The notes under the pieces are model-generated. The model searched no databases. It was given only the letters and a program-made list of their open reading frames with translations, and was not told where the DNA came from. The position numbers and the translations under genes were made by a program. Below, piece after piece: positions 10,545 through 43,809 of a stretch of DNA of 45,369 nucleotides; the first letter of the stretch is position 1, and each line of letters begins with the position of its first letter. Origin of the DNA: a virus. The stretch spans positions 1 to 45,369 of IMG/VR virus record IMGVR_UViG_3300033512_000238. One strand, 5' to 3'.

Positions 10545-10552
10545 GAAGGACA

Positions 10553-10581
10553 GCCCGAAGGGCAAAACAAAGGTGGACCAA
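10553..10581 (+). promoter_or_regulatory. leader hairpin + Shine-Dalgarno unit, copy 1
   Basis: GCCC-GAA-GGGC followed by AAAACAAAGGTGGACCAA then ATG 10582. Confidence 0.55.
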
Positions 10582-11472
10582 ATGGAACAAATCAAAGCAG
10601 TAGCGACAGTCAAAACAACAAAAGCAGGGGAAACGGTTTATCATTACGCGGTAGCACTCCCGGCAATGACAGCGGACGACGGCGAAGAAATGGCCGCTGT
10701 CGAATCAACTCGCAAAACTGACAACAAGTACAGCCACGTTGTATTGTGGAATAGTAAAAGAGGCGTCCCGGTCGTTTGTGGATATACGAACGACGCGGCC
10801 GGATATATTGCCCGGACTCTCTCAGAGGACAACCGCCTCCGGAAAATGTACAAAAAGGAGCCATTAACAGCGGCGGACCATTGTCTCCGGGCGGTCGCGA
10901 TTGAGTTCGTAGAAGCTCCGGTAAAAGCTCCGAAAACAGCAAAAGCAAAAGCGGAAGCGGCTCCGGTTATCGAAGCGGCTCCGGCTATCGAAGAAACCCC
11001 GGCCCCGGTAGCTCTCGAAGCGGCTCCGGTCGCTCCGGTTGTCCCGACAGCGGCGGAGGCGAATCTCGACGGTTTTGTCGTCGAGATCGACAGAACCACC
11101 GGCGTTTGTTTTATCTCCGGGGGGAAGTACAACGCGGAGAAAGCGCTCACTATTATTCACCGAAACGATTGGTGGCTCCGAAACATCGGGGAGGACGTCC
11201 TCGACCTTATCGCGACGGTGAACAATAGCGATATACACGGCCGCGAGTTCAAAGAGGCGGCCTATCAACTCCTTAAAATTTGCCAACCGGAAGAACAGGC
11301 GGCCGCCGCAATCGCGACAACGGACGAGGAGGAAAGCGTCCTGCGTCAACTCTCATACGTTCACGGATTCACGTCGACACCGGAGGAGACTCCGGAGCCA
11401 AACGTCGAGAAACTTATCCGGGCCGCATTTTTGAACGGGAGACAGCGCGGGAGAACCGCCGGGAAAGAATAA
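10582..11472 (+). CDS. hypothetical two-domain early protein with Ala/Pro-rich linker (296 aa)
   Basis: First ORF after P1. The ATG sits at the spacing seen in the other leader units. The middle is APVKAPKTAKAKAEAAPVIEAAPAIEETPAPVALEAAPVAPVVP. No family recognised. Confidence 0.65.
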   Translation: MEQIKAVATVKTTKAGETVYHYAVALPAMTADDGEEMAAVESTRKTDNKYSHVVLWNSKRGVPVVCGYTNDAAGYIARTLSEDNRLRKMYKKEPLTAADHCLRAVAIEFVEAPVKAPKTAKAKAEAAPVIEAAPAIEETPAPVALEAAPVAPVVPTAAEANLDGFVVEIDRTTGVCFISGGKYNAEKALTIIHRNDWWLRNIGEDVLDLIATVNNSDIHGREFKEAAYQLLKICQPEEQAAAAIATTDEEESVLRQLSYVHGFTSTPEETPEPNVEKLIRAAFLNGRQRGRTAGKE

Positions 11473-11481
11473 CAGCAACGG

Positions 11482-11504
11482 CCCCGGGGGGAACTCTCCC
11501 GGGG
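11482..11504 (+). other. GC-rich intercistronic stem-loop (no U-tract)
   Basis: CCCCGGG (11482-11488) pairs with CCCGGGG (11498-11504), directly after stop 11470-11472. Confidence 0.4.
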
Positions 11505-11514
11505 AGACTTGAAA

Positions 11515-11544
11515 GCCCGAAGGGCAAAACGAAAGGGGCCAAAA
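11515..11544 (+). promoter_or_regulatory. leader hairpin + Shine-Dalgarno unit, copy 2
   Basis: GCCC-GAA-GGGC followed by AAAACGAAAGGGGCCAAAA then ATG 11545. Confidence 0.55.
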
Positions 11545-11805
11545 ATGGCAAAGATATTTTTCACAAACGGGGCGGAGATCGAGGTCGACCTCGCGCCGAA
11601 ATTTAAGGCCGGGGAGATTCTCCCGATATTACAGGGGCTTTTGGGCGGCTATATCCAAATAGCAACGGCGGTCGATACGGACGCCGGGACCGTCCTCGTA
11701 ATTGTGAACGAGGACGGGCTCGCGCTCGGGCTCGATCAAAACGCGCGGTTCCCTCAGTACGTCGGAACAGTGGTAACGGTTATCGACGGCGTCGAGATAG
11801 ACTAA
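11545..11805 (+). CDS. DUF3846-like protein (86 aa)
   Basis: ILQGLLGGYIQIA ... LVIVNEDGLALGLDQNARF matches my recollection of the DUF3846 pattern (l..lq..vGGyie.v ... NEeG.l.gLp.N). Confidence 0.55.
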   Translation: MAKIFFTNGAEIEVDLAPKFKAGEILPILQGLLGGYIQIATAVDTDAGTVLVIVNEDGLALGLDQNARFPQYVGTVVTVIDGVEID

Positions 11806-11812
11806 CAAGACA

Positions 11813-11833
11813 GGCCCGGGGAGGTCCCGGGCC
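11813..11833 (+). other. GGCCCGGG/CCCGGGCC intercistronic stem-loop (no U-tract)
   Basis: GGCCCGGG 11813-11820, loop GAGGT, CCCGGGCC 11826-11833, followed by AAAACG rather than a T-run. Confidence 0.45.
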
Positions 11834-12252: not shown

Positions 12253-12527
12253 TTAAATATGAAGTTTTTCAAGACGGGTCGGAGTGGATAGCCCGGTCCC
12301 AAAATGGCAAAGAGGCCAAAGGGAACACAGCGGCGGAGGCTCTCGAGAATCTCGTCCGGGAGGAGATAATCGAGTACAACCTCGCGACGGGGAGAACGTG
12401 CGATAAATGCGAAAACTCGACACAGGACGCCGGGGGGAATTTCTCTTGCACTCTCGACGAACTATTCGACGACGAGGGGGAGCAAGTAGCCCCGGGCCAT
12501 ACTTGCGAGGGGTATCTCGGGTGGTAA
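12249..12527 (+). CDS. hypothetical Cys-containing protein (92 aa)
   Basis: GTG 12249 overlaps the upstream TGA (GTGA). Contains CDKC ... C ... C, a possible zinc ribbon. Confidence 0.5.
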   Translation: MIKYEVFQDGSEWIARSQNGKEAKGNTAAEALENLVREEIIEYNLATGRTCDKCENSTQDAGGNFSCTLDELFDDEGEQVAPGHTCEGYLGW

Positions 12528-13176: not shown

Positions 13177-13186
13177 GTAACGGACA

Positions 13187-13215
13187 CCCCGCCGGGGAAA
13201 ACAAAGGACTAAAAA
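13187..13215 (+). promoter_or_regulatory. leader hairpin + Shine-Dalgarno unit, copy 3
   Basis: CCCC-GCC-GGGG followed by AAAACAAAGGACTAAAAA then ATG 13216. Confidence 0.5.
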
Positions 13216-13470
13216 ATGATTCAAGAACTCAAAGCGGCGAACCTCACAACAGCTCAAAAGATCAACCTCGGAAAATCTCGCGCTCGTCAAGTATGGGGGG
13301 AGGCGATTCTCGCGGAACCGCGCTTCGCTTTCGAGCTCTCTCTCGCGGTTAAATTCGATAACGTACTCGACTTTTTGAAAAATAGCCGCGTCGGGCAACC
13401 GGCGGACGAGCGTTTCGCCTCACGTCGTCAGCGCATCTATTTTTGGACTCTCGCGAATACTATCAACTAA
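13216..13470 (+). CDS. hypothetical protein (84 aa)
   Basis: Single ORF between P2 and the terminator at 13481. No family recognised. Confidence 0.55.
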   Translation: MIQELKAANLTTAQKINLGKSRARQVWGEAILAEPRFAFELSLAVKFDNVLDFLKNSRVGQPADERFASRRQRIYFWTLANTIN

Positions 13471-13480
13471 AAAACAAACA

Positions 13481-13513
13481 GGCCCGGAGGCGAAAGTCTC
13501 CCGGGCCTTTTCT
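13481..13513 (+). terminator. intrinsic terminator (bulged GGCCCGG stem + T-rich tail)
   Basis: GGCCCGGAGG 13481-13490 pairs with CTCCCGGGCC 13498-13507 (one bulge), followed by TTTTCT. Confidence 0.55.
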
Positions 13514-13520
13514 ATTGACA

Positions 13521-13550
13521 CCCCGAAGGGGGAAACGAAAGGCGGCCAAA
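13521..13550 (+). promoter_or_regulatory. leader hairpin + Shine-Dalgarno unit, copy 4
   Basis: CCCC-GAA-GGGG followed by GAAACGAAAGGCGGCCAAA then ATG 13551. Confidence 0.5.
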
Positions 13551-14210
13551 ATGGCACGAGAAAAAGAGTTCGACCTCGACGCGGCTATCGCGGAGACGGT
13601 TCGGAAATTTACGGCGGGGGATTGTTTTCTCCTCGCGTCAAAAGTGAAAGCCTCGAAAGGTCTCGTTTGTAAGCGATTCTTTACGGGAGAGGACGCGGCG
13701 GAGGGCCTCCGGGCGTCTCGCGTTGGTCTATCGGTCGGCCGCGTGGAGTGGTCCGGCGTTTGGATTGTACCGGCGGACAAACGCGACGGCGTCGCAGATC
13801 AATTCGAACACAAAAACGAGATACCGGTCGAGGGCCTCGTCGCTTTTGCCTCTCGAGCAATCGGGGCCGATAGCGTGGACCATTACCGGGCATTTAATCG
13901 CCTTTTCCCTTTCGACGCTCGAGACCTCGCGACCGGGCCTCTTATCGCGACGAAAAAGGGAAAGGAGTCTTGGGAGTTTCTCCGGGTCGGCCATAACAAA
14001 ACAACGGAAGCGCTCGAGACCATGAAAGCTATACACCGGGGGGAGAGTTTCGGGGAGATTATCGTCGCGGCGGGTCCGGACGGCGAACGGGTCCGGGGAA
14101 TGATCGCGGACGGGCAAATCGAGCGGGCTCGAGATGTTTCGATTTATTGGGGGACAACTCCGGACCCTCGAGGGAAAGCTCTCGCAATGTATCAAGGCGG
14201 CGAACAATGA
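13551..14210 (+). CDS. hypothetical protein (219 aa)
   Basis: ORF track 13443..14210. I prefer ATG 13551, which has the conserved leader unit. No family recognised. Confidence 0.6.
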   Translation: MAREKEFDLDAAIAETVRKFTAGDCFLLASKVKASKGLVCKRFFTGEDAAEGLRASRVGLSVGRVEWSGVWIVPADKRDGVADQFEHKNEIPVEGLVAFASRAIGADSVDHYRAFNRLFPFDARDLATGPLIATKKGKESWEFLRVGHNKTTEALETMKAIHRGESFGEIIVAAGPDGERVRGMIADGQIERARDVSIYWGTTPDPRGKALAMYQGGEQ

Positions 14211-15587: not shown

Positions 15588-15940
15588 GCGGCCTCCCGTG
15601 GACAAAGGAGCTAAAACAGATCGCCGCGGAGATCGAGACCAAACGAGACCCCGAAACGGCGGCGGACATTGTTCGAGACCTCGCGAGACAGGTCCGGGAG
15701 TTATCGGCGGGGACCGGCCGGGAGTTATCGGCCGCGCGGGAAATGCTCGACGAGCTCCGGGCGCTCTTTGGTCAGTACAAGTTCGAAACGGCGGGGAAAA
15801 TCGAAGAGCTCGAGGGGAATCTCGAAGAACAGCGGACGTATATCTCCGCGCTCGATGACTCTCTCCTCCGGCCGGACGGGGAGGCCGCGAGGTTTTGGGC
15901 TCAAAGCATACGAGAAGAAAGGGCGGCGGAGAATGGGTAA
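15584..15940 (+). CDS. hypothetical coiled-coil protein (118 aa)
   Basis: ATG 15584 overlaps the upstream TGA (ATGA). Charged and helical. Confidence 0.5.
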   Translation: MSGLPWTKELKQIAAEIETKRDPETAADIVRDLARQVRELSAGTGRELSAAREMLDELRALFGQYKFETAGKIEELEGNLEEQRTYISALDDSLLRPDGEAARFWAQSIREERAAENG

Positions 15941-16289
15941 TTTTTTAGACGTTGACGCGATCAAAAGCCGACAGAGACCGGCGGCATATTTCCCACTAAA
16001 GCGGAAGTGGTTCGAAGAGATCAAAGCCGGGACAAAAACAGAGGAGTACAGGGAAAAAACACAGCGAAGAGCGGCTCAGCTCGCGAAGCTCGTCCCGGGG
16101 GACGTGATCGAGTTTTCTCTCGGCTATCCCAAAAAGGACGACAAAGAGCGGAGAATACAAAAGCGTTTTCTATCGGTCGAGAGTCGAACCATTGAGCACG
16201 AGGAGTTCGGCGGGGAGAGTCTCGAGGTTTTCGCGATACTATTCGAGAACATACCGGAAACGGCGGGCCGCGCGGAGTTTTCTATATAG
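15933..16289 (+). CDS. ASCH-like domain protein (118 aa)
   Basis: FPLKRKWFEEIKAGTKTEEYRE ... GDVIEFSLGY resembles the ASCH beta-barrel pattern (from memory). ATG 15933 lies within ORF 15669..16289. Confidence 0.45.
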   Translation: MGNFLDVDAIKSRQRPAAYFPLKRKWFEEIKAGTKTEEYREKTQRRAAQLAKLVPGDVIEFSLGYPKKDDKERRIQKRFLSVESRTIEHEEFGGESLEVFAILFENIPETAGRAEFSI

Positions 16290-37273: not shown

Positions 37274-37317
37274 TTGATAACTCCGCGCGGTTGTGTTATA
37301 TTTGCAAATGTAACAAC
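37274..37317 (+). promoter_or_regulatory. promoter P3 (TTGATA-17-TATATT) with near-palindromic box
   Basis: TTGATA 37274-37279 and TATATT 37297-37302. Box TGTTATATTT-GC-AAATGTAACA at 37294-37315. The leader hairpin CCCGG-CGAA-CCGGG at 37324-37337 is identical to the P5 leader. Confidence 0.7.
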
Positions 37318-37359
37318 AAACGACCCGGCGAACCGGGGACCAAACGCGGAGGCGGAAAC

Positions 37360-40699: not shown

Positions 40700-40814
40700 A
40701 GCGGCCCGGCGCTATCCGGGGAGAAAGCGGCGCGGGAGTTTATCCCGCGAGCCTCCCGGGGGGAAAGTCCTCCCGGGATTTATAACGGTTGTGACCTATA
40801 GAAAGGATGGGATT

Positions 40815-42074: not shown

Positions 42075-42100
42075 GGCCCGGGGCTCTCCCGGGCCGTTTT
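42075..42100 (+). terminator. intrinsic terminator
   Basis: GGCCCGGG 42075-42082 pairs with CCCGGGCC 42088-42095, then GTTTT. Confidence 0.7.
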
Positions 42101-42119: not shown

Positions 42120-42163
42120 TGGATAATCTCCGCGGATAGTGTTATATTTTCAAATGTAACAAC
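42120..42163 (+). promoter_or_regulatory. promoter P5 (TGGATA-17-TATATT) with near-palindromic box
   Basis: TATATT 42143-42148. Box TGTTATATTT-TC-AAATGTAACA at 42140-42161. Leader hairpin CCCGG-CGAA-CCGGG at 42170-42183. Confidence 0.7.
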
Positions 42164-42193
42164 AAACGACCCGGCGAACCGGGACACAGGACA

Positions 42194-42223
42194 CCCCGAC
42201 GGGGAAAACAAAAGGCGGACCAA
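42194..42223 (+). promoter_or_regulatory. leader hairpin + Shine-Dalgarno unit, copy 5
   Basis: CCCC-GAC-GGGG followed by AAAACAAAAGGCGGACCAA then ATG 42224. Confidence 0.55.
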
Positions 42224-42598
42224 ATGACACAAGCGGAAAAAACAACAGCAAAAGAACAACTCGAGAAAATGCTCGCGAGCCTCGACCGGGACGACGCGAA
42301 CCTCAAAGCAAGAACGACAGAACTCGACTTTTTTGTCGTAAAGCTCGGGGCCTCTTATTTAGTCGAAGAAAACGTAGACAAGAAGCTCGAGGACGGTATC
42401 TTGTTTCCTCACCTCGGGAACGCGACGACATACGCGGCTAAACACCACGCGGCGTCTATCGCAAACCGGGTGAAGAACGGAAACGGAGCCGGGAGCGTTG
42501 TTCTTAAATTGTCGGAAGCTATCGCGGCGGAGCTCAAAGAGAACGAGGAGTCTCGCGCGTTTATTATCGGCGGCCTCGAGAGATTAGATACAATTTAA
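42224..42598 (+). CDS. hypothetical protein (124 aa)
   Basis: First ORF after P5. No family recognised. Confidence 0.6.
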   Translation: MTQAEKTTAKEQLEKMLASLDRDDANLKARTTELDFFVVKLGASYLVEENVDKKLEDGILFPHLGNATTYAAKHHAASIANRVKNGNGAGSVVLKLSEAIAAELKENEESRAFIIGGLERLDTI

Positions 42599-42605
42599 GA
42601 GACAG

Positions 42606-42628
42606 GGCCCGGGGAAATCTCCCGGGCC
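42606..42628 (+). other. GGCCCGGG/CCCGGGCC intercistronic stem-loop (no U-tract)
   Basis: GGCCCGGG 42606-42613 pairs with CCCGGGCC 42621-42628, followed by ATTCAAG. Confidence 0.45.
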
Positions 42629-42638
42629 ATTCAAGAAA

Positions 42639-42667
42639 GCCCGACGGGCAAAACAAAGGCGGACAAA
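42639..42667 (+). promoter_or_regulatory. leader hairpin + Shine-Dalgarno unit, copy 6
   Basis: GCCC-GAC-GGGC followed by AAAACAAAGGCGGACAAA then ATG 42668. Confidence 0.55.
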
Positions 42668-42922
42668 ATGACAGAACGGGACAAACTAATCGAGGACGCG
42701 TGCGCGGCTATTTCGGCCGTAGAGATGTTCGCTTTTAATATTTTGGAAAATGCGAAAGCAAGACACCGGGCCGGGGCGGCTTTCGAAATCACGGCGAACG
42801 ACCTCTCTTTTGCAATTCTCGAAGAGGTCGGGAGAAACCCGGGAGCAATCAAAACGGTATTTATAGCGGCGGCGGACACCGTCGAGGCATTAAGAAAAAA
42901 CGACGAGGAGGTCGGAAAATGA
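42668..42922 (+). CDS. hypothetical protein (84 aa) ending in the KNDEEVGK junction cassette
   Basis: ORF track. The C-terminal 8 residues and their nucleotides are identical to the end of 14451..14702. Confidence 0.55.
   Translation: MTERDKLIEDACAAISAVEMFAFNILENAKARHRAGAAFEITANDLSFAILEEVGRNPGAIKTVFIAAADTVEALRKNDEEVGK
42894..42922 (+). promoter_or_regulatory. junction/RBS cassette, copy 3
   Basis: agaaaaaacgacgaggaggtcggaaaatga. ATG 42919 overlaps TGA 42920-42922. Confidence 0.6.
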
Positions 42923-43783: not shown

Positions 43784-43809
43784 GGCCCCGGGGGACCTCG
43801 GGGCCTTTT
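43784..43809 (+). terminator. intrinsic terminator
   Basis: GGCCCCG 43784-43790 pairs with CGGGGCC 43799-43805, then TTTT. Confidence 0.65.

Follow-up and report, generated by a model that had tools for sequence, protein, structure and literature searches.

The window, meaning the whole 45,369-bp stretch of DNA analysed here, is a complete uncultured phage genome with direct terminal repeats, in which the + strand carries all genes and no tRNA genes were found. Six of its genes (A to F, Table 1) each stand directly behind a copy of one short leader unit. The initial annotation had described this unit as ~30 nt long, and all six copies were recovered where it had placed them, although the unit reaches 7 nt further 5' than was stated and comes to ~35 nt in all. 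The unit-led genes are small or of no known family, with a weak match to DUF3846 and a match to phrog_23407 being the only ones obtained.

Table 1. Positions of the leader units, the genes behind them, promoter boxes and large GC hairpins in the window.
Feature	Position	Strand	Description
Promoter box P1	10520..10543	+	extended -10 and near-palindrome; drives unit 1
Unit 1	10546..10584	+	GACA, hairpin 10553-10563 GCCC-GAA-GGGC, AAAAC, AAAGGTGG, ATG 10582; 55.9 bits; ~18 nt past predicted start of P1
Gene A	10582..11472	+	296 aa, no family; relative: 153-aa protein aligning to residues 159-293 only, 42% identity
Large GC hairpin	11481..11507	+	between gene A and unit 2; without U-tract
Unit 2	11508..11547	+	GAAA, hairpin 11515-11525 GCCC-GAA-GGGC, SD AAAGGGGCC, ATG 11545; 52.6 bits; 8-10 nt downstream of large GC hairpin
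Gene B	11545..11805	+	86 aa, weak DUF3846 match; relative: unrelated gene in same place
Large GC hairpin	11813-11833		same GGCCCGGGG...CCCGGGCC family
Promoter box P2	13153..13176	+	TTGACA, 17-nt spacer, TATATT, with TG; drives unit 3
Unit 3	13180..13218	+	GACA, hairpin 13187-13197 CCCC-GCC-GGGG, SD AAAGGAC, ATG 13216; 50.7 bits; after P2
Gene C	13216..13470	+	84 aa, no family; relative: 6-codon ORF
Large GC hairpin	13481..13507	+	between gene C and unit 4; then TTTTCTATT
Unit 4	13514..13553	+	GACA, hairpin 13521-13531 CCCC-GAA-GGGG, SD AAAGGCGG, ATG 13551; 52.8 bits; 13 nt downstream of large GC hairpin
Gene D	13551..14210	+	219 aa, no family; relative: 52% identical
Large GC hairpin	40753-40779		same family
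Large GC hairpin	42075-42095		same family
Promoter box P5	42139..42162	+	drives unit 5
Unit 5	42187..42226	+	GACA, hairpin 42194-42204 CCCC-GAC-GGGG, SD AAAGGCGG, ATG 42224; 52.4 bits; after P5 and first leader hairpin 42170-42183
Gene E	42224..42598	+	124 aa, phrog_23407; relative: missing along with large hairpin and one unit
Large GC hairpin	42606..42628	+	between gene E and unit 6; weak U-tract
Unit 6	42632..42670	+	GAAA, hairpin 42639-42649 GCCC-GAC-GGGC, SD AAAGGCGG, ATG 42668; 53.8 bits; 10 nt downstream of large GC hairpin
Gene F	42668..42922	+	84 aa; relative: 42% identical, directly behind promoter-proximal unit
Large GC hairpin	~43785-43806		same family

A pattern drawn from the unit (SCCCGNNGGGSRAAAC) has six exact matches in the window against 0.64 expected, and seven in total with up to one mismatch, a number reached in 0/100 shuffles. 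Using a covariance model built from ten copies, six from the window and four from a relative described below, and run with filters off, we obtained 51–56 bits for the six window copies and 44–56 bits for all ten, with no weaker copies in the window or the relative; the next-best site, at 16 bits, is an ordinary ribosome site. Both the model and the pattern place all six units in the early and recombination regions and none in the structural operon, as had been reported.

Ahead of the stem the unit reads G-A-(C/A)-A, in which the G, A and A are invariant in all ten copies (G4, A5 and A7), as are the AAAC that follows the hairpin and the loop G, already noted as the first base of the triloops. 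The hairpin lies at -31 to -21 relative to the AUG and 9–10 nt upstream of the Shine-Dalgarno (SD) sequence, with a run of A and not of U behind it. The 3' consensus first proposed, RAAAC, (R)AAAGG, a G-rich SD tail and ATG, describes the copies well except for that at 13187, which deviates (AAAGGACTAAAAA). An SD and ATG end the element in 10/10 copies and, as anticipated, this fixes the six true start codons. The G-rich SD in its AAAC-AAAGG context is also present, without the hairpin, at genes 4672, 17884, 18352, 28537 and 44318, so the distinctive parts of the unit are the hairpin and its immediate flanks. GGAG occurs in 0/6 unit SDs, which carry GGCGG, GGTGG, GGGGC or GGAC, and GAGGAGG is used by several non-unit early genes (11846, 12235, 41038 and 42905).

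Three of the five early operons are laid out in the order promoter, unit, gene 1, large GC hairpin, unit, gene 2, and the succession from promoter through unit and gene 1 to large hairpin had been missed in the initial annotation. One box is common to five promoters, and it stands ahead of the units at 10553, 13187 and 42194 only, with no -10 element at the right distance from the three units that follow a large hairpin (11515, 13521 and 42639). A promoter within these post-hairpin units was considered and rejected, as the TTGACA at 13514 has no -10 partner. The large hairpins, seven of which lie behind genes of the early and recombination regions, have the form GGCCCGGGG-loop-(CT)CCCGGGCC, and about half of them have no U-tract. 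No separate promoter serves the genes behind them, so efficient termination at these hairpins is excluded: transcription must pass through them, or they mark processed ends. In appearance they are closer to attenuators or protectors of 3' ends than to full terminators. Two further genes behind large hairpins (11860 and 43819) have no unit. The final gene of the early region, ahead of the late promoter (15933-16289), encodes a 118-aa protein that matches phrog_625, of unknown function (E 3e-20), and more weakly a PHROG annotated as RNA-binding (E 0.006).

One relative was found. It consists of two contigs of 18.3 and 26.6 kb, both from the same sample in IMG/VR, that together are colinear with the window at a DNA identity of 70–79% (about 75%). 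It contains four units (2494, 10641, 12340 and 12438), whose 20-nt core is 75–95% identical to that of the window copies, whereas the coding DNA beside the units is either unalignable or encodes proteins merely 42–52% identical. The units are thus conserved islands under purifying selection: in pairwise alignments homology spans the promoter or large hairpin together with the unit and stops ~10–30 nt past the ATG, and the genes behind are diverged, replaced, truncated or absent. Gene E, a large hairpin and one unit form an indel with a unit at either end, and the loss of gene E in the relative is the product expected of recombination between the units at 42194 and 42639. Judged from this one relative, the units mark mosaic boundaries at which genes appear to have been gained, lost or replaced, a property which had not been recognised before. 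At the junction orthologous to 11515, the relative lacks the small hairpin and retains the SD string.

Some of these differences lie immediately behind a unit. Gene A has ~158 additional N-terminal residues (10582-11055) right behind its conserved unit that are lacking in the relative's homologue, and this extension is a domain gain or loss at a cassette boundary. Likewise, gene C (13216-13470) has as its ortholog a 6-codon ORF, MNSSKD (L021, 12369-12389), which lies between a fully conserved promoter plus unit and the next large hairpin plus unit, and which is the only ORF between the relative's P2 promoter and that large hairpin. Elsewhere, promoters P3 and P5 of the window have an identical ~30-nt initial transcribed leader (37308-37337 and 42154-42183) that ends in a second type of hairpin, CCCGG-CGAA-CCGGG, and the relative's P3 leader has a different hairpin in the equivalent position (GGCGAAC...GTTCGCC); the hairpin of the P3 leader seems to have been kept while its sequence turned over.

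Searches for more unit-bearing relatives in IMG/VR, a metagenome set and bacterial genomes found none. A homologue search with gene D returned the window and the one relative only, and single-protein locus searches with genes D and E gave no matches. Scanning a metagenome set for the promoter box produced 40 matches, all at chance level, and a scan of IMG/VR for the hairpin plus its flanks gave 55 single chance matches and two in the known relative. With the covariance model, 80 IMG/VR loci encoding distant relatives of the portal protein yielded nothing below E 0.07 (best 19 bits), and 58 such loci from bacterial genomes yielded nothing up to E 1. The search of related genomes that had been recommended therefore revealed conserved copies in one relative but none in 138 loci of distant relatives. 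Megablast and blastn searches of GenBank phages with the early regions gave no DNA match. Relatives of the window's portal are spread over many phyla at ≤35% identity, and the portals P0004 and P0005 are 54% and 32% identical to it. A 530-aa ORF (875-2467) has ~33% identity to ParB/DNA methyltransferase genes of Staphylococcus, Streptococcus and Faecalibacterium phages, and no host was singled out by the matches to either protein.

Across the window no Rfam model, CRISPR-DR included, reached its gathering score, and the leader stretches had nothing relevant at E up to 10; a CRISPR repeat or other Rfam family was rejected on this basis. A CsrA site was likewise rejected, as GGA is missing from three of the ten copies (11515, 13521 and the relative's 12340) and is never in the loop, as was a nut-like site, the motif YGCTCTTWA having 37 matches against 33.6 expected by chance and none in a leader.

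The stem is predicted in 10/10 copies. Across these, 95% of the cells in stem columns are invariant or paired, compared with 84% in shuffles, and pairing falls to 68–73% when the 3' partner is slid by one column. The outer pair, which is C-G in seven copies, G-C in three and unpaired in none, is the sole covarying pair, and the RNAalifold covariation term is small. The compensatory switch between G-C and C-G that had been proposed is therefore real for the outer pair, but it concerns one pair only and probably few events, and the GCCC type, which is confined to three sites in the window genome, looks copied. The 20-nt core of the copy at 10553 matches its paralogs at 11515 and 42639 at 19/20 and 18/20 positions and its ortholog at 15/20. 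As this copy is nearer to its paralogs than to its ortholog, the switch is best read as one change spread by copying, not as three events, and the same comparison points to unit-to-unit copying.

The hairpin occurs with a 4-bp stem and a triloop, with a 4-bp stem in shifted register and a pentaloop, or with a 3-bp stem capped by a GAGA tetraloop. Folded alone, the rearranged forms in the relative, ACCC-CGAGC-GGGU (A-U, C-G, C-G, C-G) and CCC-GAGA-GGG (three C-G), have predicted energies of -4.5 and -4.8 kcal/mol, and three 4-bp triloop forms of the window have -4.5 to -4.6 kcal/mol. At the units 13187 and 13521 the hairpins are identical in both genomes and the adjoining linkers have diverged. 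Within the window leaders the small hairpin is in both the MFE and the centroid structure of every copy, that at 13521 being shifted by one base. The relative's leaders form it less robustly: the MFE structure contains it at 2494, the centroid alone has it, with 3 bp, at 10641, and at 12340 and 12438 it is replaced by a predicted long-range helix between the two units. The SD is unpaired with a mean probability of 0.63 in unit genes, against 0.52 in the other genes, and gene 13551 is an exception at 0.13. A switch that masks the SD was rejected, as the SD is mostly unpaired and offers the 5' arm nothing with which it could consistently pair. The stems contain no G-U pairs, so an RNA hairpin and a DNA palindrome are formally indistinguishable. 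Taken together, the alignments and predicted folds are moderate evidence that a hairpin of set strength is under selection. The suggestion of a shared RNA element thus holds in so far as a selected leader element is shared, its units conserved where the adjoining genes have diverged and the stability of its hairpin kept, but the hairpin is absent at one orthologous junction. Conservation, which the initial annotation expected of a genuine element, is present in the relative's leaders, while covariation is limited to the outer pair.

The reading we prefer, tentatively and at a little under an even chance, treats the unit as a portable cassette of leader and ribosome site whose hairpin protects and insulates the 5' side of messages, probably after cleavage in an A/U-rich linker, and whose repetition provides homology for gene gain and loss. 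The predicted mRNA would comprise an A/U-rich unstructured linker with the invariant GA, an 11-nt GC hairpin (~-4.6 kcal/mol), an A-rich spacer ending in AAAC and an extended SD (AAAGGNGG), with 5–6 nt then leading to the ATG. An endonuclease of the RNase Y or RNase E type would cut in the linker, at or near the GA, and part gene 1 from gene 2. The gene 1 message would then end in the large 3' hairpin, and the gene 2 message would start with the small hairpin 3–4 nt in, as a 5'-proximal protective and insulating structure that would shield it from 5'-end-dependent decay while leaving the SD in an unpaired A-rich context. Early genes would be inserted, deleted and replaced at the homology between units, where the copies would also homogenise; the repetition of a ~35-nt unit supplies homology for such exchange, a role which the comparison with the relative demonstrates in part. 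Cleavage, stabilisation and an effect on translation are what we infer from this arrangement. The nuclease named is a guess, and an RNase E-type enzyme is equally possible.

Several observations count against this cassette model. The hairpin lies ~18 nt from the predicted promoter starts and is not 5'-terminal unless the leader is trimmed, although a cut at the invariant GA would bring it to 3 nt from the end, and at 4 bp and ~-4.6 kcal/mol it is a weak barrier. The accessibility of the SD differs little from that of other genes, the hairpin orthologous to 11515 is missing, and genes 11860 and 43819 have no unit. Furthermore, a generic stabiliser would not need GA.A, the loop G and AAAC to be invariant. 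This last point, conservation of G4, A5, A7, the loop G and AAAC beyond the need of any generic hairpin, is what keeps alive a different reading, in which the hairpin and its flanks are the operator of a trans-acting RNA-binding protein that controls the six leading early cistrons jointly, be it a phage or host translational repressor (as T4 RegA or gp43), an antiterminator or a processing enzyme. The position of the hairpin coincides with the edge of the 30S footprint, the element is confined to the first two cistrons of three operons, and one early protein (15933-16289) has the weak RNA-binding match described above. We nonetheless consider an operator unlikely, as family searches of the early proteins gave no match to N-, RegA- or gp43-like proteins or to an antiterminator family and identified no candidate RNA-binding regulator, there is no boxA-like element near the units, and the orthologous sites of the relative tolerate a shifted stem with a pentaloop or a 3-bp stem with a tetraloop, which would be unusual for a sequence-specific operator. 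The products of genes C and E are dispensable in the relative and so cannot be essential N-like factors, and the sequence invariance could equally stem from copying between units. Its boldest form, a RegA-like regulon built on an 11-nt hairpin in which an unrecognised repressor or site-specific endoribonuclease, of the phage or hijacked from the host, would silence or mature the six cistrons, is quite improbable.

That copying might also account for the hairpin itself: the unit could be a copied ribosome-site junction in which the GCCC/GGGC inverted repeat has no RNA function, being carried along passively or serving as a recombination signal in the DNA, with gene conversion keeping the copies alike. 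Copies within the genome are more alike than some orthologs, the units sit at mosaic boundaries with one indel flanked by a unit at both ends, the phage reuses another 27–30-nt junction cassette three times, and the lack of G-U pairs leaves an RNA hairpin and a DNA palindrome on an equal footing. In addition, GGGG/CCCC stems and GGGC/GCCC repeats have been noted at T4 deletion ends (PMC2839356). What makes this reading doubtful is that the units 13187 and 13521 retain identical hairpins across both genomes despite their diverged linkers, that changed stems have regained their stability by re-registering pairs, and that loop positions are more variable than stem positions. Mimicry of a host small-RNA or protein target, either a CRISPR repeat (as a Cas6 decoy or processing site) or a CsrA site formed by flanking GGA motifs, appears very unlikely indeed. 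The promoter-proximal copies do read GGACA ahead of the hairpin and have a GGAC within the SD, and the hairpin with its GAAAC handle is reminiscent of some CRISPR repeat ends, but the Rfam search, CRISPR-DR models included, was negative, and Cas6 substrates are typically larger than a 4-bp stem with a triloop.

The repeated signal is genuine and shaped by selection, yet it is a familiar sort of portable phage expression cassette. Its recognition settles the start codons of six genes and defines how operons are built in a phage lineage that otherwise lacks annotation. If cleavage plus protection were true, the unit would be a compact (~35 nt) natural insulator part for multi-gene expression, and if the operator model were true it would mark a new post-transcriptional regulon; neither outcome would overturn current understanding.

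GC hairpins upstream of an A/U-rich spacer and SD are found in the late leaders of phage T7, in E. coli ompA and in B. subtilis aprE, and in T7 the leader hairpin is repeated on several transcripts of one phage. Those hairpins are larger and lie at the extreme 5' end of the primary transcript, unlike the hairpin described here, which is ~18 nt from a predicted start or behind another hairpin. The lambda nut boxB is a 15-nt hairpin with the stem GCCCU/AGGGC and a GNRA-like pentaloop, and its partner N protein has an arginine-rich motif. As with boxB and the operators of T4 RegA and gp43, a small hairpin or element close to the ribosome site is common to early transcripts, here with a G-first loop, but unlike lambda nut there is no boxA, the stem has 4 bp, the loop is a triloop and there are two copies per operon.

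The closest parallels to the proposed cleavage come from operons of B. subtilis and S. aureus. The preferred substrate of B. subtilis RNase Y is a G/A dinucleotide lying in AU-rich sequence with little structure; at cggR-gapA and glnRA it cuts behind the operon's first gene, and the hairpin downstream serves chiefly to stabilise the cleaved product against RNase J1 (PMC11780869). For the S. aureus sae operon, it is a structure downstream that guides the cut to a position 6 nt upstream (PMC5449607). The candidate site described here likewise follows a first gene, and has an A/U-rich unstructured stretch with GA, a stem-loop and the ribosome site of the next cistron, as in cggR-gapA, glnRA and saePQRS. 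However, the hairpins there are longer, with a 24-bp structure in sae against 4 bp here; those sites are single and their cleavage has been mapped, whereas ours belong to a reiterated cassette in which cleavage is predicted from sequence.

The cassette as a whole resembles the PeSL units of T4-type phages, in which a repeated promoter, stem-loop and SD recombine and mediate gene shuffling, always with a sigma70-type promoter of their own and with a stem-loop within or before the promoter that acts as a terminator or attenuator (PMC2839356, PMC4122927). Like PeSL, the present unit is a short composite repeated ahead of small early genes of unknown function, with a GC stem-loop and an SD and ATG at the 3' end; its copies can recombine, and indels and replacements between relatives fall exactly at units (genes E, B and A, in one relative). 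Unlike PeSL, three of the six units have no promoter, the small hairpin is in the 5' UTR just before the SD, downstream of the promoter and without a U-tract, and any terminator-like role would fall to the separate family of large hairpins. The phage is also an unrelated 45-kb virus. A growing number of repeated leader cassettes are known as places where phages exchange small early genes; the unit extends this set beyond T4-type phages with a case that has no promoter built in, and is a clean, small instance of the promoter-independent form.
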